A DNA stretch of 64,000 bases from a virus (taxonomy: Duplodnaviria; Heunggongvirae; Uroviricota; Caudoviricetes): positions 47,269 through 111,268 of the IMG/VR virus record IMGVR_UViG_3300011113_000787; one strand, 5' to 3'. Below the pieces are notes generated by a model. It ran no database searches and was not told where the DNA came from. It worked only from the letters and a program-made list of their open reading frames with translations. Each line of letters begins with the position of its first letter. Within the stretch, counting starts at the first letter, position 1. This document shows, piece after piece, positions 3,641-63,508 of the stretch. The position numbers were made by a program, and so were the translations under genes.

Positions 3641-3974
3641 AGATACTGTTGTTATTATGACTGTAAAACAAGGCGAAGACATTAACCAAAGATTTATTTT
3701 ACTTAATGATAGTATTAAAAAAGTTAATGTAAGCTTCGATAAATACATGTTAGAAAACGGGATGCGTTTACAAAAAGTCTATTCCGATTATAACATGGAA
3801 TTAAACAATCACAGACAAACTAGAGCGGAAGCGGATAGTATCAAAAATCTCTATCTTCTTAACAAAAAACTTTATATGAACGCCGAAGAAGACCATAGAA
3901 GGGAAGTTAGAAATTTATTTGGTTTCACACTAATATCGTTTTTTCTTACAATATTCGTTTCTTTTAGTAAATAA
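3549..3974 (+). CDS. membrane protein with C-terminal TM (holin candidate); start uncertain (could be Met at about 3658)
   Basis: C-terminal hydrophobic segment LFGFTLISFFLTIFVSF; overlaps previous ORF if long start is used. Confidence 0.3.
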   Translation: MKLLKASLTMLMMLVSLSSYSQYPTVKTIGKDTVVIMTVKQGEDINQRFILLNDSIKKVNVSFDKYMLENGMRLQKVYSDYNMELNNHRQTRAEADSIKNLYLLNKKLYMNAEEDHRREVRNLFGFTLISFFLTIFVSFSK

Positions 3975-38697: not shown

Positions 38698-38931
38698 TTA
38701 TTTTACAGGTGAACCTTGTGAAGGTGCTGAACAATCCAATCCTATTTTTTGACCGTTAATGATGAAAACCAAATCATCACCCTCAACAACTACTTGAGCT
38801 GTTTTGTTAGGTAATGTATTTAATTTAGCAACTAAATCAGCAGGATTCAAATCCATTCTAAAACCTTCTTTTAAAATTTTTTTGGTTAATCTAACCAAAT
38901 CAGATTCTCTCAATTTTATAGTCTTTGCCAT
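38698..38931 (-). CDS. family-B small protein (KLRESDLVRLTKKILKEG)
   Basis: N-terminal motif; preceded by partial copy 4 of cassette (38945-38992). Confidence 0.45.
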   Translation of the reverse strand: MAKTIKLRESDLVRLTKKILKEGFRMDLNPADLVAKLNTLPNKTAQVVVEGDDLVFIINGQKIGLDCSAPSQGSPVK

Positions 38932-39157
38932 GTTTAAATGTTTTCAATAAATACCTCAAAAAAGGACAATTTTTTCCCAAAAATTTTTTTTGCGTTACTC
39001 AAGGTATTATCCCCCCCAAACTGACGTTTTGTCCTATAGTAAGGGGGGATACGGGGGGAGGGGCCCCCACCTAGGGGGTATACCCCCATGCCGAAGGGGG
39101 GTTATGTGGATAAATAGTTATCCCCACCTCCCCTGTGGATAAATAAATTTGGTTTTG

Positions 39158-39661
39158 TTAAAATGTCGTTTTGTCTTTTCTTGCAAACACGGCGTCTTCA
39201 GGGACCTCCATCTTAGGAGCGAGCCATGACCCCACCACGAACTGTCTATCTTTGCCGAGCTTAAGGTCTTCGGGAATGGCGGGGGACTTAGCAATTTGTT
39301 TCATTGTCTTTTCTATATCCTCTTGTATGTAGTTACTATCTTCACGGGGTACATCATACATGGTTGTGAGATATGCTGTCGAGTAGGCGTATGGGTCGTG
39401 GGTGTGAAGGAATGTATTCTCGGTCCCGAAATAGAATTTCATGTATGAGTTAAGTGGCCACCCCGTCTCACGTTGTAACATGTATGGGTCAATTAGCACA
39501 TTAACAAATATTAAGGCGTATTGGTTTATCTCCTCATCTGAGGGGAGAAGGACATCTATAATCCATGGGAACTCACGTTTAAGAATTTTCTTAATTAGCT
39601 TAAACTCATAGGAGTTTTCCACCTCTTCTTTTGTGACGAATCTTTGGGGGTCATTAAACAT
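39158..39661 (-). CDS. hypothetical protein (167 aa) with FPWIIDV motif; higher GC than surroundings
   Basis: KREFPWIIDVLLP block shared with 15996..16625. Confidence 0.45.
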   Translation of the reverse strand: MFNDPQRFVTKEEVENSYEFKLIKKILKREFPWIIDVLLPSDEEINQYALIFVNVLIDPYMLQRETGWPLNSYMKFYFGTENTFLHTHDPYAYSTAYLTTMYDVPREDSNYIQEDIEKTMKQIAKSPAIPEDLKLGKDRQFVVGSWLAPKMEVPEDAVFARKDKTTF

Positions 39662-39724: not shown

Positions 39725-39859
39725 ATGAAGAAGTTTATTAAAGCTGTGATTATCGGGTACGTTGTATTGTGGGGGGTTCAGTGGATGAAAGACCTTTTCC
39801 GTGATGAGAACATTAACACTTTGGATGACGTGAAGCGTCTGTTGAAGGAGAAGTTATAA
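39725..39859 (+). CDS. small membrane peptide (44 aa), not in ORF track
   Basis: MKKFIKAVIIGYVVLWGVQWM...; ATG 39725 to TAA 39857-39859. Confidence 0.3.
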   Translation: MKKFIKAVIIGYVVLWGVQWMKDLFRDENINTLDDVKRLLKEKL

Positions 39860-40279
39860 CCCCGACATTAGTATTCTGTTTCTACACTCACTTATAATCT
39901 GAGCTGGGGTGATGGACTCGTCTTTTGTATAGAGTCCTTCCACCTTGGCATCTACGCATGCCCATGAGTTAAGACCTATGGGTTTTCTCACATAACCTCT
40001 TTTTGCTTTCTCGAAGTATAGTATACCGAGACTCTCTGTGAGCTCCCCCACCTTGAAGAGTACCTCCACAGATATTCGCTCAGGCGTGATTAGTGTTATA
40101 TCATACGACAGTTTGGCGGATGTATCGACGTTAGTTGATTCCATATACGGTAAAACATAGTTATGGAACATATAAAAATAAAGGGTCCCACTCACACGAT
40201 ATCCACCTGACGATATGTCTGTGTGGATAAAAAAGTTTTCCACACGAGGTTTGGGGATAACTTTTTTTGGAAAAGACAA
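39854..40279 (-). CDS. hypothetical protein (141 aa); N-terminal part overlaps DnaA-box cluster so true start may be internal Met
   Basis: ORF; first ~35 codons coincide with DnaA boxes at 40198-40245. Confidence 0.35.
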   Translation of the reverse strand: MSFPKKVIPKPRVENFFIHTDISSGGYRVSGTLYFYMFHNYVLPYMESTNVDTSAKLSYDITLITPERISVEVLFKVGELTESLGILYFEKAKRGYVRKPIGLNSWACVDAKVEGLYTKDESITPAQIISECRNRILMSGL

Positions 40280-40587
40280 AAAGTCAGGGGAGCTTTAGAT
40301 GGGGGATAATCCCCTCGACCCATTTTCCCCCACTTTTCCCCACCACTCATTCCCACTTTCTCCCACCCATTATGGTCATGGCATACCCTAAAACCCCACT
40401 TTTTCCCTTCTGACGGTATCAGGAGGACCAGTTTTTTACTATGTATATTTCTTAGCAAAAAAAGGAAGATTAAGTATAATGAGCGGGGAGTGAGTGTAAC
40501 GAACCTTTAATATGATTAAATTACCTTCAACGAGATGGACATGTAGTGTCCCATAGTATGGACAATTCATATATGGTGGGTAAATGT

Positions 40588-40740
40588 GGGAGTTAATTAT
40601 ACGATATTTCATTTAATCGTGTGAATACACGATACTCTATTTTATCGTTTCATTTGACGATACTATGGTCATGTCGAAAATATCGTTTCGTTTCATCACG
40701 AAGTGTTGTCTAATGACGATATGATATACATGACCATTAT
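40588..40740. repeat. iteron-like direct repeats (ACGATAyT / TTTCATTT) and inverted TATGGTCATG copies
   Basis: ACGATA at 40591, 40618, 40648, 40705; TTTCATTT at 40597, 40638, 40681; TATGGTCATG at 40371 and 40654, inverted copy at 40719-40729. Confidence 0.45.
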
Positions 40741-40810
40741 ATCACCATCTCACGAGTCCCCTCACTTATGCGGGGGGATAATTAGGGTGGGGTAAGTTTT
40801 ACATTATAAT

Positions 40811-41203
40811 GTGTTTTATGGTGGACATTTTACTACATCTTTATCCTTTTTACGACACATTTGGAAGAATATAGAGTTGTTATATTTCTCCAAAACCCCT
40901 AAAAAAAGTGAGATTTGGAGAAATATAAATGATATATTTATGAGTATGGAAGAAGCTTTCGAAAAGATATTAAATAGTATAGTTGTACCTATGAACCACA
41001 GACTATCAGGTGTGAGGGTAAATAAACATAATCGACTTAAGGGTACTTATGATGTAACTTATTTCTTTAATGATAGAGTTGATTTTCATGATGGTCAGAA
41101 AATACAGATAGAAACAGATAACATGTTTAGATTATTAGGACTTAAGGGAAAGGAAACTTTCATTATTTCATTTGAAAAAGCAGACGATTTCGTAAACATA
41201 TAA
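40811..41203 (+). CDS. hypothetical protein (130 aa), first gene of plus-strand module
   Basis: ORF downstream of origin-like region; start uncertain. Confidence 0.4.
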   Translation: MFYGGHFTTSLSFLRHIWKNIELLYFSKTPKKSEIWRNINDIFMSMEEAFEKILNSIVVPMNHRLSGVRVNKHNRLKGTYDVTYFFNDRVDFHDGQKIQIETDNMFRLLGLKGKETFIISFEKADDFVNI

Positions 41204-41442
41204 TGGTACAGTTAGAAAGAATATTAGAACAGATTATTATCCCCCGATATAAAGAACTTGTGGGTGTTAACGTAACCACTATGGGATTGGATAGTACATG
41301 GTTTAAAGTTGTATATTATTTCAGACCCCCTTTAGATAGAAGTGATGCTATTGAGATTATGGAAGAGACCACATCACTCTATAAGATGCTTGGAGTCAGA
41401 GGTGGAGATATTGTCGTATCATTTGAACCATATATAGGGTAG
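41203..41442 (+). CDS. hypothetical small protein (79 aa)
   Basis: TAATG overlap with upstream ORF. Confidence 0.4.
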   Translation: MVQLERILEQIIIPRYKELVGVNVTTMGLDSTWFKVVYYFRPPLDRSDAIEIMEETTSLYKMLGVRGGDIVVSFEPYIG

Positions 41443-41557
41443 ATTATACAATTAAAGAGAGAAGTGAGGGACATCCACGGAACGTAGTGTAGTGGATTGT
41501 ATTTGTCCCGAACTGAACGAATTAATTGGATAATCTAATAGAATTATATTTATTTAC

Positions 41558-41938
41558 ATGAGATACATTATAACACAGACGCAGCTTCATACACTTATAT
41601 ACAAGTATTTGGATGAGATGTTCTCTTCACAAGACTTTAGAAAAGAAATTAATCCATACGTTAAAGACGGTAATACTTGGAGGATTAATATGTTTGATAA
41701 TGAAGGTAATGAACTCATGAACTATTTTTGGTTTGGACCAGGTAATTCTTGGGACGACGATGAAGACACTCCTCCACACAATGGTGTTGGTAATCTTCAT
41801 ATCCACCACAAAGTTGTTGATACGTTAAAGAAGACATTCTCCATTAGGGAGAGCAAAGTTCTTGATATTGTTGCTGATTGGGTTAGTGAGACTTTGGGTG
41901 CAGATATTGATGATATTGATATCTACCCTGAAAAATAA
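41558..41938 (+). CDS. MRYIITQ-family small protein (group A, plus strand)
   Basis: MRYIITQTQLHTLIYKYLDEMF. Confidence 0.45.
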   Translation: MRYIITQTQLHTLIYKYLDEMFSSQDFRKEINPYVKDGNTWRINMFDNEGNELMNYFWFGPGNSWDDDEDTPPHNGVGNLHIHHKVVDTLKKTFSIRESKVLDIVADWVSETLGADIDDIDIYPEK

Positions 41939-42773: not shown

Positions 42774-43025
42774 ATGAAGTACATCATAACAGAACAACAA
42801 GCCTCAGAGATTTTTGCTCTCTATAGAAAACTAATTCAGGATGTCTTGGAACAAAAAGATATCTATGTGAAAGATGTTGAAATCACTCCTATATATTTCC
42901 CGAGAGGGTTGAAAGTGATTGTTAAATTGGAAAAAGGTCAAGATAAGGAGCTCGCAAGGAAACTTATTAAAGGTATAGTTGGAAGTCTTTCAGGTTTTGG
43001 TCAAAGAGAAGTTAGTCTCCCTTAA
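42774..43025 (+). CDS. MKYIITE-family small protein (plus strand)
   Basis: MKYIITEQQASEIFALYRKLIQ. Confidence 0.45.
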   Translation: MKYIITEQQASEIFALYRKLIQDVLEQKDIYVKDVEITPIYFPRGLKVIVKLEKGQDKELARKLIKGIVGSLSGFGQREVSLP

Positions 43026-47109: not shown

Positions 47110-47476
47110 CTTTATCTAATTTAGGTTTTCCGTGTGGTTTTGGTTTTCCGTTTTCATCAAGTAATACAAACACAATCTTGTCTATTCTAACAATAGATTG
47201 TTTTGTAATTTTATTCCTAACGTCACACGCTATCGTAATTGAACTCGTACCCACTTTAACCATATCCATCCCGAACTCTATGATATCACCAAGAACTGCG
47301 GTTGATACAAAGTTAATCTCAGACATCGCTTTTGTTACAATGTTCGGACTACCGAGTTGGCAGATTGCAAATATCGCAGCCTCTTCATCAATCCATTTTA
47401 GGACCTGTCCTCCAAACAAAGTTCTTCTTGGATTTAGGTCACCTGGCTTTACCAATTTTCTTGTTCTATATTTCAT
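47096..47476 (-). CDS. hotdog-fold acyl-CoA thioesterase-like protein
   Basis: LVKPGDLNPRRTLFGGQVLKWIDEEAAIFA resembles the 4HBT/YciA thioesterase N-terminal block; inserted between umuD-like and umuC. Confidence 0.45.
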   Translation of the reverse strand: MKYRTRKLVKPGDLNPRRTLFGGQVLKWIDEEAAIFAICQLGSPNIVTKAMSEINFVSTAVLGDIIEFGMDMVKVGTSSITIACDVRNKITKQSIVRIDKIVFVLLDENGKPKPHGKPKLDKDEVQ

Positions 47477-59777: not shown

Positions 59778-60980
59778 TTAGTTTCCTTTTGTTGGGAATC
59801 TTGTCCAACCGTTGGTCCAAGTTGGTTTGGATAACAAATCCATTTCCCCTTTGGTGTATTGTTTTTCTGAATTACCTTCGGATAGTGCCTTGGTTTTCAT
59901 GTCTGTTGCTGTAAACACTGTAGAGGTAGATTTAAAATTGAGAAGTGGGTCAAATGCCTGAATCTCATTATTCAAAAATTTAGAGACCCTGTCCTTGTAA
60001 GACTGAGCAGTTTCATTACTTTCAATTGAAAATGAACCCTTTTGATATCCAAGTATTTTTGAGTTTGTTATTGTGAATTGAGTTGCTCTTCTCCATCTCA
60101 AACCTAGATTATGGTTTGATAAAGAAGTGTTGCTAAATGGTCCAATCAAAATCATTTGGTTTAACTTTGGATGTGTAAATGGTTGTGCAGATGAACCTGT
60201 TCCATCATTATCACATTCAACACCATTTCCTGCATCTCCGTTATCAACAAATAAAGGGTCTCTTTTGGAAACACCGTAATTAAGTTCACCTGTGTAACCA
60301 AAGTCAAAGTCATAATCATCATCTGCTGTTGCGAATGCATAAAGATATCTTGGTGATACAGTTCCACCGAAGAATTCAAATGCGTCGTCGTTAGCATAAA
60401 TTGTTTGGACATATTGGATAATTGTTCCTCTGCCAACTGCACCTAACGTCAAAGCATTTATCTCAGAATTTGGAAGTGCTGCAATTCCAGCGTACTCAAT
60501 TCTAACATACTTGATTATACCACTGTTGTCTTCATCATTTGTTCCACCATAAGGTCTCCCGATTCCACCTTCAATTGTTGGTTCAGAACTTCTGTTTGTT
60601 TTTGCTCTACCAAGGATTACAATCCCACCCCAATCACCAGGACTTCTTTGTCCTTCAGGTTGACCTGATGTGAAAACAATTGGTCTATCAGGTGTGCCTT
60701 CAGCAATTATCTTTGCACCCCTCTCAATACATAGTGCACCTTTTTCTGCAACATCTGATTTGATTACAGTTCCTGGTTGGATTATTAATGAAGCCCCATC
60801 TGTAACATACACATAGCCCTTCAATGTCCATACTTTGTCTGAAGTCAAAGTTGTTGTTGCGTTAATGTTACCTGATAGAGTAGTTGATGATGGTACGTTT
60901 ATTGGTCCCTCATCACCTCCAAGGTCTTTAGTACAACTGATAAATGATAATAAAGTCAGAGACAATAATAATTTTTTCAT
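59778..60980 (-). CDS. surface lipoprotein (400 aa), partner of the TonB-dependent receptor
   Basis: Lipobox LLSFISC; overlaps upstream TBDR stop (ATGA). Confidence 0.5.
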   Translation of the reverse strand: MKKLLLSLTLLSFISCTKDLGGDEGPINVPSSTTLSGNINATTTLTSDKVWTLKGYVYVTDGASLIIQPGTVIKSDVAEKGALCIERGAKIIAEGTPDRPIVFTSGQPEGQRSPGDWGGIVILGRAKTNRSSEPTIEGGIGRPYGGTNDEDNSGIIKYVRIEYAGIAALPNSEINALTLGAVGRGTIIQYVQTIYANDDAFEFFGGTVSPRYLYAFATADDDYDFDFGYTGELNYGVSKRDPLFVDNGDAGNGVECDNDGTGSSAQPFTHPKLNQMILIGPFSNTSLSNHNLGLRWRRATQFTITNSKILGYQKGSFSIESNETAQSYKDRVSKFLNNEIQAFDPLLNFKSTSTVFTATDMKTKALSEGNSEKQYTKGEMDLLSKPTWTNGWTRFPTKGN

Positions 60981-63508
60981 AGATTTAAATTAATTGATAG
61001 AGAGATTGATTGTTCGTTGTTTGTTTTAATCAAATCCCTATTGTTTATTTTTTGATAAAATCTTGTTGGTTGTGCTAGCAAATCCCCAACAGATAATTTT
61101 ATTTCTCCTTTTTTTAATTTTCTTAATATAACCATGTCTACAACATCTCTTGAGTTTTCGAAGATATCAGGATATCCTTGAAATCCAACTGCAGATATTC
61201 TTTCTCCGATTCTATTATATGTTATTGAAACAGAGTTGTTGTTCTTGTGGAAATTCAATCCACCATTGATAATATAATTTGATTGTCCTTGTAATTGTCT
61301 TTTGATTTGACCGACATTCACATTTGAATTGATAAGTGCTGAGTTTGTGTAAACATCAAGCCAGTCGCTCATCTTTTTTCTAAATTCAAATTCAATTCCA
61401 ATTACAGATGCTTGATTTGGATTTGTATATGTTAGAAGAAGATTTGATGGTACTGAACCGTCAGCAACTATTTGTTCAATTGGTCTGATAAAGTTTTTTG
61501 AGAAAACTCCAATTGAAAAGTTTTCACCAAGTTTTGGATAATGTTCCCACTTCAAATCGAAGTTGTAGATATCAGTTTTCTCAAGGTTTGGATTACCTAA
61601 AAGTTGTGCGTTTCTAACGAAGTCATAGTATGCAAAGTTTGCTACTTCTCTGAACTCAGGTCTTGCAAGTGTCTTAGACATCGAGAATCTAAACTTATCT
61701 TTCTCCAAGTTATATGATAGGTTAACTGATGGTAAGAAGTCCAAGTATTCTCTGTTAACTCTCACTCTTGTACCACTGAAATCTGATGTGTTAACTTGAA
61801 ATACATTGTACTCTGTTCTAAGACCACCATTAAATTTCCATTTGTTCCATGTCTTATCGTATTGGACATAACCATTCGAAAGGTCGAAGTCTGCGGAATA
61901 TCTATCAGCGTTGTTTGTGATTTCGTTCAACAGGTCTGCCGCATCATATCTGAATATTCTTGCTTGAAAGTTTCTGAACTTTTTTAGGTGTCCTACACCT
62001 ACTTTAAAGTCACCAAAGTCTTTGTCTACCGAACCATTAAATTGGTTTTCATCCATCACAGACCAGAATCTATAAGTGTCTCTCCAAGCAACTGAGAAGT
62101 TATCATTTGTTCCCAATGACTTTGTTATTGGATTAACTCTATAATCAGGTTGGTCTCTTAACATCAAGTTATAACCCAAGATGAAATCCCATGTCTTTAT
62201 CTTACCTTCGAATTGAGAGTTGAAGATTGTTTTAACCACCGTGTTTGATGAATTACTTTTAACATATTGAACGTTATCATAATTCTCACCGTTTCTTTGT
62301 AGATAAGAACGTTCAACCTGATGATTCAAAATTGACTTCCAAGAGAATTTATTATCACCAATATAAGTTAGGTTGAATAATCCACTCACAGAACTGTTAT
62401 CAGTAAACAAAGTGTCTCTGTATTTGTAAGCAAGCTCTGTTGAACTTTGATAGTCCAATCTATCTGTGTAGTTAAGACCAAATGATTTTCTTGCGTTTGA
62501 GCTAAACAAATAATTCCACTTGGAATTTTTCAAACCAAATGAAAGACCTCCATTAAAGTTTGGCGTGGATAGGAAGTTACGTTCATTTCCATCAACCATT
62601 AGTTTTGTGTATGCCCTTCTGTCTCCGATTGTTCCAACTCTGAATTTGTATGTTGACGGAAACTTGGTGGGGAAGGTTATATTTTCCACCAATCTGAAAT
62701 CTCTTAAACTCGAAACCGTTCCATAACTTGTTCCGAGTGATAAGGACAAAAAATTGTCGTTTACCTCCTTTGTTGTAACTTGAACAACTCCACCAGCGAA
62801 GTCACCAGGAAGTGATGGAGAAGCCGATTTCAATACCATCACGTTATCTATAAGACCCGCTGGTATGATATCAAAAGAAAATGACCTTCTATCTGGTTCT
62901 GTCGAAGGTAAAATTGTTTTATTTAAAAATGAAAGGTTATATCTATCAGAAAGTCCTCTTACCAAAACAAACTTATCGTTTTGGATTGTAACCCCATTAA
63001 CCCTTTTCAATACGTCACCAACTGTTCTATCAGGAGTCTTCTCAATGTATTCAATCGATACTCCATCAGATACAACATTATTGTTTCTTATTGTTCTGAT
63101 AACAGAAACTTCAGTAACTTTCTGTGGGACACTCCTTACTACAACCTCATTTAATTGAGTTGTATTGTCTTCAAATACGATATCATAATTCATATCACCC
63201 TGAACCAATAAGTCCTGTAGATACTCCTTATATCCAACGTAGGTTGCTTTAATCTGGTACTTACCCTCGGCTAAAGTGATTGAGTAAATTCCGTCCTTGT
63301 CTGATAATGTGGTGAAGACCTCACCTTTTTCGTTCTTAAAAGTAATGTGCGAAAAATAGATTGTCTCAGTCTTTGATTTTGTTACCCCTTTGATGTTCAC
63401 TTGAGAGAACAAAAAGTTTGGTAAAATTAGAAATAAAAATAAAAGTTGTTTCATGTCCACAATAATTATGAACTCAACTTTACATGCCCATAGTTTTTGT
63501 ATTAACAA
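60977..63508 (-). CDS. TonB-dependent outer-membrane receptor (CarboxypepD_reg-like N-domain + plug + barrel)
   Basis: Signal peptide ...FLFSQ; VNIKGVTKSK...YQIKATYVGYKEY carboxypeptidase-regulatory-like domain; plug block DNVMVLKSASPSLPGDFAGGVVQVTTK. Confidence 0.65.
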   Translation of the reverse strand: MLIQKLWACKVEFIIIVDMKQLLFLFLILPNFLFSQVNIKGVTKSKTETIYFSHITFKNEKGEVFTTLSDKDGIYSITLAEGKYQIKATYVGYKEYLQDLLVQGDMNYDIVFEDNTTQLNEVVVRSVPQKVTEVSVIRTIRNNNVVSDGVSIEYIEKTPDRTVGDVLKRVNGVTIQNDKFVLVRGLSDRYNLSFLNKTILPSTEPDRRSFSFDIIPAGLIDNVMVLKSASPSLPGDFAGGVVQVTTKEVNDNFLSLSLGTSYGTVSSLRDFRLVENITFPTKFPSTYKFRVGTIGDRRAYTKLMVDGNERNFLSTPNFNGGLSFGLKNSKWNYLFSSNARKSFGLNYTDRLDYQSSTELAYKYRDTLFTDNSSVSGLFNLTYIGDNKFSWKSILNHQVERSYLQRNGENYDNVQYVKSNSSNTVVKTIFNSQFEGKIKTWDFILGYNLMLRDQPDYRVNPITKSLGTNDNFSVAWRDTYRFWSVMDENQFNGSVDKDFGDFKVGVGHLKKFRNFQARIFRYDAADLLNEITNNADRYSADFDLSNGYVQYDKTWNKWKFNGGLRTEYNVFQVNTSDFSGTRVRVNREYLDFLPSVNLSYNLEKDKFRFSMSKTLARPEFREVANFAYYDFVRNAQLLGNPNLEKTDIYNFDLKWEHYPKLGENFSIGVFSKNFIRPIEQIVADGSVPSNLLLTYTNPNQASVIGIEFEFRKKMSDWLDVYTNSALINSNVNVGQIKRQLQGQSNYIINGGLNFHKNNNSVSITYNRIGERISAVGFQGYPDIFENSRDVVDMVILRKLKKGEIKLSVGDLLAQPTRFYQKINNRDLIKTNNEQSISLSINLNL

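Follow-up and report, generated by a model that had tools for sequence, protein, structure and literature searches.

ColE1-type origins of replication have a structured pre-primer RNA (RNA II), and close to it are a DnaA box and a primosome site that forms a hairpin. The put RNAs of phage HK022 and the nut sites of phage lambda are cis-acting antitermination RNAs. GOLLD and ROOL are large RNAs of unknown function that are encoded by phages or prophages, and their domains are partly conserved and partly variable (PMC12286853, PMC5737381). In GOLLD, one region is conserved universally and another varies, and many of its members are over 800 nt long (PMC12286853; PMC5737381). Iterons accompany DnaA boxes in the origins of P1 (oriR), F, pSC101, and RK2, and the lambda origin also has iterons (reviewed in PMC4980987, PMC5043065). 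Here, we describe a noncoding element of ~600 bp (~40185-40795) in a 64,000-nt stretch of DNA from a Caudoviricetes virus (IMG/VR record IMGVR_UViG_3300011113_000787, positions 47,269 to 111,268). We will term this whole stretch the window, and positions are counted from its first letter.

A sequence-only reading of the window had taken short repeats at 40588-40740 for an initiator-binding iteron array with a DNA-unwinding element, or else for binding sites of a regulator of divergent early promoters. The observation is real but was misread: every repeat that it listed is an arm of a hairpin, and the repeats are neither iterons nor conserved protein sites. With a probability of about 0.6, we believe that they are stems within a large structured RNA, where they would form two peripheral hairpins, and that this RNA would be transcribed rightward from a region bound by DnaA. 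Rather than an iteron array, the element is probably a large structured RNA of a new kind.

The repeats are arms of two hairpins

The flagged segment lies within a 795-bp gap (40145-40939) between divergent genes, beside a DnaA-box cluster that is evolutionarily maintained; the sequence-only reading was right about the adjacent boxes and the divergent genes. It was also right that ACGATA(T/C)T is clustered, but not that there are four to five direct copies. Counting both strands, the hexamer ACGATA occurs six times in 40588-40740: forward at 40601, 40629, 40657, and 40716, and inverted (TATCGT) at 40643 and 40681. This clustering holds up to shuffling, as dinucleotide shuffles of the same 153 bp had a mean of 0.66 copies and none of 2000 reached six. 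Across the window, ACGATAY has 21 matches, versus 9.4 expected (0 of 100 shuffles get to 21), and a third of these (7 of 21) fall within 40196-40722.

Other details of that reading fared less well. TTTCATTT was said to occur three times, but there are just two exact copies in the region (40607 and 40648), and the third "copy" is TTTCGTTTCAT. TATGGTCATG is indeed present at 40371, but its second copy is at 40664 instead of 40654. Its inverted partner exists, with one mismatch, at 40729-40738 (AATGGTCATG on the minus strand) instead of at 40719-40729; that is, the last two coordinates were shifted by 10. Also, the segment is not AT-rich: its G+C content is 32%, versus ~34% across the window, which gives no compositional support for a DNA-unwinding element.

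The repeats are non-random, and they pair with each other. When 40596-40746 is folded, two long hairpins result (-42.7 kcal/mol, z = -4.3, with 0 of 200 shuffles as stable), which we will term modules A and H (Table 1). ACGAT-N10-ATCGT is found twice, 28 bp apart, and nowhere else in the window, and three of the ACGATA copies have this 28-bp spacing; the apparent palindromes are the four arms of module A. A repeat finder paired 40659-86 with 40716-43 (28 nt, 79% complementary), within module H.

DNA searches of GenBank phages, both near and distant, found no relative, and tblastn with a 167-aa protein that is encoded nearby found nothing. Homologs of this protein did lead to contigs with the same locus, and exact-pattern scans of viral and metagenome contigs with invariant words from the core of the element gave more. 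(One of these words, the 16-mer in the 5' anchor, was the search pattern, so it is invariant by construction.) In all, the element is present in at least 69 lineages (with the first 330 nt clustered at 97% identity), including contigs of 317-321 kb.

In nearly all of these lineages, two modules of the same design lie between the G-rich motif and CACCATCTCA. The sequences of the outer and middle stems are free to change, while their complementarity is kept. For example, the TATGGTCATG stem is replaced in relatives by the unrelated stems ATTACATAT/ATATGTAAT, ATGGGGTAT/ATACCCCAT, and ATGGACTC/GAGTCCAT. Further variants are ATCACATAT/ATATGTGAT, ATGACATAT/ATATGTCAT, and AAATCAT/ATGATTT, where the window has ATATCGT/ACGATAT. 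The apical stem also covaries (ACC/GGT, CCC/GGG, CAC/GTG, CACC/GGTG, and GACC/GGTC). What is kept despite the changes in the stems is a three-base apical loop, GAA or GTA (GUA), and TTGTYT (UUGUYU) on the 3' side. The site of a sequence-specific initiator or repressor would keep its sequence, so these repeats are not conserved protein sites, and the proposal that they bind a regulator is not supported.

MAFFT put some module rows one column out of register, so we relied on a covariance model for module H and on hand-defined arms for module A. In a seed alignment for module H (21 sequences aligned with MAFFT, with the structure assigned), 72% of cells are paired, versus 33-47% in slid controls. 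The covariance model has a single match in the window (40665-40742, 45 bits, E ~1e-6) and matches in 30 other lineages. In the covariance-model alignment, 78.8% of cells are paired, versus 31-49% with the partners slid; this alignment is fitted to the model and the seed is not, so 72% is the safer estimate. The covariance-model alignment contains 53 double-sided changes, versus 21 in shuffles, and 0 of 500 shuffles reach the observed number.

Where it is present, module A is built of a central hairpin surrounded by arms of the ACGAT type, up to four in number. These arms covary among lineages: they are ATCGT/ACGAT, ATCAT/ATGAT (L062 and L067), or ATCGG/CCGAT (L029), and in L095, L111, and L165 they are mixed, in the sole arrangement that keeps the nested pairing perfect. 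The central stem covaries as well (ATCGTGT/ACACGAT, ATCGTGG/CCACGAT, and ATCGTTT/AAACGAT). L035, L042, and L050 do not have the ACGAT motif, yet the modules are kept.

Covariation is not confined to the modules. The stem at 40406-40437 covaries (CTGTAG/CTACAG and CCTG/CAGG), and some lineages have additional hairpins, with compensatory stems, that are inserted in the core at fixed sites. Optional inserted hairpins of this kind are a familiar pattern in large structured RNAs. Overall, the hairpins exist, they are conserved in position, and their stems covary. The compensatory base-pair changes by which structured noncoding RNAs are recognized are found in modules A and H and in the core and inserted hairpins.

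RNA, origin, or operators

If the element is an RNA, then which strand is transcribed? One indication is from the 3' hairpin, whose 5' arm in relatives toggles between C and U facing an invariant G. At the four variable positions that face an invariant G, the base is C in 79 cases, U in 44, and a purine in 21, which corresponds to 85% pairing on the + strand and 55% on the minus strand. This toggling fits a tolerance for G.U pairs on the + strand only. Similarly, among the non-Watson-Crick cells of module H, G.U outnumbers A.C (38 vs. 24), and several helices predicted on the core alignment vary just by C/U facing G or by G/A facing U.

Several observations are neutral or argue against a + strand RNA. 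First, general tests of the strand are ambiguous: the minus strand folds as well or better, and an unbiased count of single mismatches inside Watson-Crick helices shows no excess of G.U. Second, most of the core is invariant and hence silent on pairing. Third, a long-range helix between the C-rich and G-rich tracts is missing in many lineages. (It has 11 bp in the window, with compensatory variants in some lineages. We do not claim this helix, in which CACTCATTCCC at 40347-57 would pair with GGGAGTGAGTG at 40486-96.) Fourth, such hairpins could also form in single-stranded DNA or as cruciforms. Fifth, no promoter or terminator is defined for the proposed RNA: the hairpin at 40406-26 is followed by a T6 run, as in a terminator, but this run may pair with 40457-63, and RNAalifold does pair it with the A run there. 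Finally, the turnover of the DnaA boxes points to a function at the level of DNA, at least for the 5' part.

The DnaA boxes themselves are genuine, as the sequence-only reading had proposed. TTATCCMCA has seven matches in the window, versus 2.0 expected (0 of 100 shuffles reach seven), and five of the seven are at 39105-39142 and 40222-40260. Allowing up to one mismatch to TTATCCACA, there are three boxes in each of these two clusters. All 52 of the lineages with enough upstream sequence have at least one box (up to one mismatch) within the 135 bp that precede the anchor. On average, this stretch holds 2.56 boxes, versus 0.054 in shuffles; an equally long piece of the downstream element holds 0.20. 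The positions and orientations of the boxes differ between lineages. Because the boxes are maintained while they shift about, their turnover indicates that binding is under selection and a fixed sequence is not.

Most relatives have a perfect TGTGGATAAC as the box at 40252-60; TGTGGATAAC, which is the commonest box, has TTT right after it. The box at 40252-60 overlaps TAACTTTN, a candidate -7 promoter box on the + strand (from a pattern match), which resembles the Bacteroidota -7 box. So, DnaA could gate a + strand promoter. The second cluster is 1.1 kb to the left of the element, within an ultra-conserved, hairpin-rich intergenic region (38932-39157), and its pair of boxes is an inverted copy of the pair at 40236-40266 (31 nt, 77% complementary). 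The intergenic region has ~90% nucleotide identity to a relative whose flanking protein is 57% identical, and it is rich in hairpins with runs of G and C, such as GGGGGTATACCCCC.

We propose that modules A and H form the variable 3' domain of a single-copy noncoding element of ~600 nt. The element would be transcribed from the + strand and would consist of a sequence-conserved core with variable peripheral hairpins. These hairpins would be structural or recognition modules and not DNA sites for an initiator. The RNA would start just downstream of the cluster of boxes for the host's DnaA, where the best-conserved box overlaps the possible -7 box. The host's DnaA might bind the DNA here and either gate transcription or couple the element to replication. 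More tentatively, and at odds that we would place somewhat below even, the element may represent an undescribed class of large (~500-650 nt) ornate RNAs, with one per huge-phage genome and a promoter region that is occupied by DnaA, by which the phage would read the initiation state of its host or start its own replication. If so, the host's replication initiator would be linked directly to a structured RNA of the phage.

The element does not seem to be simply a leader for the rightward genes, because in several lineages these genes have their own TAnnTTTG-type box right after the element. In L075, L101, L109, L125, and L142, this box (TACCTTTG) is 8 nt before the ATG of the first rightward gene and ~60 nt after GGTGGGG. 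TAnnTTTG does not occur at 40145-40940 in the window.

The main alternative is that the element is the phage's replication origin, with DnaA binding at 40196-40262 and 39105-39142. The core and hairpins might act in the DNA, as signals for unwinding, priming, or helicase loading in single-stranded DNA or cruciforms, or a structured transcript might be the origin's RNA, as a primer or by forming an R-loop, in the manner of ColE1-type or T4-type origins. (This explanation overlaps with the structured RNA that we prefer if that RNA is a transcript or primer of the origin.) An origin would account for the DnaA boxes being kept in 52 of 52 lineages while their positions turn over, and for two box clusters, in inverted orientation, flanking two small genes. 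The element is also single-copy in the 64 kb, extremely conserved, and supplied with C-rich and G-rich tracts, and both strands fold equally well, with no clear strand bias in the general tests. Nevertheless, we consider an origin unlikely, although far from negligible. Among the nearby open reading frames (ORFs) that we scanned, there is no initiator, helicase, or primase gene and no replication match in Pfam or PHROG, and structural models of the 96-aa and 167-aa neighbors match no initiator fold. GC skew has no turning point at the element; it tracks gene orientation in the window and is uninformative about an origin. There is no compositionally distinct AT-rich segment. Furthermore, stems that change freely while their loops are conserved, and hairpins that are optional, are what one expects of structured RNAs and not of known theta-type origins, and the C/U toggling facing an invariant G favors an RNA from one strand.

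Another possibility is that ACGAT-N10-ATCGT, and the 18-bp GTAAAG-N6-CTTTAC palindromes of relatives, are sites for a dimeric phage regulator at divergent promoters, with the arms changing between lineages as the regulator co-evolves. The two exact copies of ACGAT-N10-ATCGT, 28 bp apart and unique in the window, would be consistent with this: they are at the same place in several lineages while the spacers vary, near-palindromic 18-mers recur in relatives, and a sigma-70-like promoter on the minus strand overlaps the first site. But that promoter is not kept across lineages, and TAnnTTTG promoters seem to be the type that the host uses. The palindromes are broken (e.g., ATGAT-N10-ATCGT) in L062, L067, L095, L111, L029, and L165, where the hairpin pairing is kept; nested pairing gives 94 Watson-Crick pairs, versus 86 if neighboring arms are paired; and the stems of module H are wholly different between lineages. 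Also, no DNA-binding protein is encoded beside the element, and the models of the 96-aa and 167-aa proteins match no known DNA-binding fold. We therefore regard operators as very improbable.

Least credible of all is a Rep-type iteron array with an unwinding element: the motif does cluster significantly, with three ACGATA copies at 28-bp intervals and DnaA boxes adjacent, but the copies are in both orientations (four forward and two inverted) and pair with each other, their sequence is not conserved where the structure is, many lineages (such as L035, L042, and L050) have the remainder of the element and no motif, a 28-bp spacing puts the copies off one face of the helix, and no Rep-like initiator is present among the ORFs scanned in the window, which covers part of the phage genome. 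The covariation of the arms contradicts both operators and iterons.

The structured noncoding element appears to be undescribed, within the scope of our searches, and to occur in huge phages that make up a widespread group. As an RNA, it would join GOLLD and ROOL, which are among the very few large and elaborate RNAs of phages; dozens of natural variants would be usable for structure determination, and the selected DnaA boxes at its 5' edge would give a concrete handle on function. If it is a replication origin, then it would be a candidate host-DnaA-dependent origin for this group of huge phages; a limited literature search found no description of such an origin in huge phages. Either way, an element that is conserved above the surrounding proteins is a useful marker for a group of phages that is known only from metagenomes.

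The element and its surroundings

Table 1. Features of the element and its flanks, in window coordinates
Feature	Position	Strand	Details
Conserved 167-aa protein	39158-39661	-	Model pLDDT (predicted local distance difference test) 87.6
Second DnaA-box cluster	39105-39142		TTATCCACA at 39105 and 39134 (minus), TTATCCCCA at 39118
96-aa gene	39854-40144	-	Leftward, ATG at 40144; left flank of the gap
Near-invariant motif GGAACATATAAAAATAAAG	40165-40183	-	21-39 nt upstream of the ATG of the 96-aa gene
DnaA-box cluster	40196-40262		TGTGGATAA 40222-30, TTTTCCACA 40236-44, TGGGGATAA 40252-60
Palindrome CTGACGATATGTCTG	in 40196-40262		Part of the DnaA-box cluster
Core 5' anchor, GTCAGG...GGGGATAATCCCCTCG	40283-40317	+	Holds hairpin GGGGA-TAA-TCCCC (40302-14)
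C-rich repeats	40319-40367	+	TTTTCCCCAC-like; CCCAC from 40329, 40339, 40353, 40363
Hairpin CCTTCTGA-CGGTA-TCAGGAGG, then T6	40406-40437	+	Terminator-like
Central core	40484-40552	+	CGGGGAGTGAGTG; hairpin TTTAAT-ATG-ATTAAA (40506-20, covarying); conserved CCTTCAACGA
Hairpin GGACA-TGTAG-TGTCC	40537-51	+	In the central core
G-rich motif ATGGTGGGTAAATGTGGGAG	40573-40592	+	Kept in nearly all lineages; opens the variable hairpin domain
Module A	40601-40648	+	Outer stem ACGATA (40601-06)/TATCGT (40643-48)
Module A, inner stem	40616-22/40627-33	+	ATCGTGT/ACACGAT, loop GAAT; central hairpin
Module H	40659-40743	+	Basal stem GATA/TATC plus TATGGTCATGT (40664-74)/ACATGACCATTA (40728-39)
Module H, middle stem	40680-87/40715-22	+	ATATCGTT/AACGATAT-like; ACGATAT partner
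Module H, apical stem	40697-705	+	CAC-GAA-GTG, then conserved 3' TTGTCT
Conserved 3' part	40743-40792	+	CACCATCTCA; hairpin GTCCCC (40756-61)/GGGGAT (40774-79); GGGTGGGG (40785-92)
87-aa gene	ATG at 40940	+	Rightward; right flank of the gap

The core of the element is better conserved, at the nucleotide level, than the neighboring proteins are. Between the window and relative L009, 39882-40607 has 76% nucleotide identity, while the adjacent 167-aa protein is just 57% identical and its gene has almost no blastn match. The C-rich repeats are partly swapped for other sequence in some lineages. Wherever the left flank could be read, the element is beside the same leftward 96-aa gene, and GGAACATATAAAAATAAAG, which hardly varies among the aligned lineages, is probably the promoter or leader of that gene.

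The core is not protein-coding: no ORF is kept across lineages, and the ORFs that do occur differ in frame and length (29 aa in the window, 56-99 aa elsewhere). Nor does the element match a known RNA. Of the 4227 families in Rfam 15, which include GOLLD, ROOL, transfer-messenger RNA (tmRNA), group I and II introns, and 6S, none reaches the gathering score in the window or in 10 relatives, and permissive E-values give only chance-level matches to microRNA-like hairpins. A search of the 64-kb window for tRNA and tmRNA genes found none. The element is also absent from the 185,579 species-representative genomes of bacteria and archaea that we scanned, which gives no clue to the host.

Among L056-L135, the ends of short contigs pile up ~20-130 nt past GGGGATAATCCCCTCG (~40337-40446 in the window). 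These are probably breaks in assembly, where a core that is common to co-occurring strains meets variable sequence, and we did not read them as genome or transcript ends. L028, an unrelated viral contig of 6.4 kb, has ACGAT-N10-ATCGT-N8-ACGAT-N10-ATCGT at 3740-3787 and nothing else of the element; this may be due to chance, or it may be an independent pair of hairpins.

In L009 (2905-4318), and also in L010-L013 and L120, the 3' end of the element has an insertion of one or two T5orf172 genes, one of them fused to HTH_3. As they sit between two copies of a CCCCTCACTTATGCGGGGGG...GGTGGGG motif, their placement suggests homing into this conserved sequence. To the right of the element, after a 79-aa gene, 41440-41542 forms a stem-loop of ~100 nt (-31.5 kcal/mol, z = -5.8). 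Relatives of the L009 type keep this stem-loop and have two related copies of it beside homing-endonuclease genes, and it shares a GAACGTAGTG motif with the core of many lineages. Finally, a perfect 15-nt inverted repeat (TTATATTTCTCCAAA / TTTGGAGAAATATAA, at 40880-40894 / 40914-40928) is directly upstream of the ATG at 40940. It is partly conserved in L014, L018, and L035, and the rightward gene might use it as an operator or as a hairpin in its leader.

The window has ~34% G+C, and its ORFs are mostly small and could not be assigned. Those that could be assigned include a lysin-like protein (GH19 and PG-binding), an M23 peptidase, a non-specific endonuclease, PPK2, a UmuC-type polymerase, glycosyltransferases, and a TonB-dependent-receptor-like protein with CarboxypepD_reg. 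This last is an 843-aa ORF (60977-63508, minus strand) with CarboxypepD_reg, Plug, and an outer-membrane beta-barrel, and its relatives (27-31% identical) are on other uncultured phage records, one of them 635 kb long. Relatives of the window's proteins are found on uncultured viral contigs of up to 321 kb, so we take the window to belong to a huge uncultured phage. A host of the Bacteroidota type would be consistent with the domain architecture of the receptor, the absence of Shine-Dalgarno sequences at the starts that we read, and the TAnnTTTG boxes in relatives.

The small neighbors gave few clues. The model of the 167-aa protein has no significant match in the PDB, and its weak top matches are mostly of the nucleotidyltransferase fold (CdnD, MNT, OAS, and TUTases). 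The model of the 96-aa protein (pLDDT 79.1) also has no significant match in the PDB, and Pfam gives just weak HlyC-like matches for it. By eye, the 87-aa and 79-aa products are alike in an N-terminal stretch (EKILNSIVVP / ERILEQIIIP), and the 126-aa and 83-aa products have a common M(R/K)YIIT start; the coordinates for these likenesses are 40940-41442, 41558-41938, 42774-43025, and 38698-38931. The 87-, 79-, and 126-aa products have no match in Pfam (the 83-aa and 77-aa ORFs were outside that scan).

Comparison with known systems

How does the element compare with iteron origins? As in those origins, short repeats are clustered beside DnaA boxes in an intergenic region, but here the repeats are inverted, pair with each other, and covary, and no adjacent Rep gene was found. 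Of the features by which an iteron origin is recognized (at least three conserved direct repeats of ~17-22 bp in the same orientation, a Rep gene, adjacent DnaA boxes, and a distinct AT-rich unwinding element), only the adjacent DnaA boxes were found.

The 5' part is like oriC, datA-like titration sites, and DnaA-regulated promoters in that several TTATCCACA-type 9-mers (with up to one mismatch) are within ~100 bp, in both orientations. As in bacterial clusters of DnaA boxes, the cluster is kept by selection while single sites turn over. Unlike those clusters, it is on a phage genome, with no dnaA gene, skew switch, or recognizable unwinding element adjacent.

The two modules recall put and nut sites: they are a tandem pair of stem-loops whose internal loops are conserved, and an early promoter region lies upstream of them. 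However, the modules are far larger, at ~50 and ~85 nt, and form part of an element of ~600 nt, and the downstream genes vary among lineages and have their own promoters.

There is also some functional analogy to ColE1-type origins, as one noncoding region would combine a putative structured RNA, several hundred nucleotides long, with tracts rich in G and in C, a DnaA box, and hairpins. There is no sequence similarity, and the setting is a phage of ~320 kb instead of a small plasmid.

The closest analogs appear to be GOLLD and ROOL. The element differs from them in having no match to the Rfam models, in not being near tRNA genes, in being preceded by a cluster of DnaA boxes, and in that its transcript is putative and its covariation is mainly in peripheral hairpins. 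Like GOLLD and ROOL, it is large, encoded by a phage, and rich in hairpins, it has conserved and less conserved parts, and it has no known protein partner.

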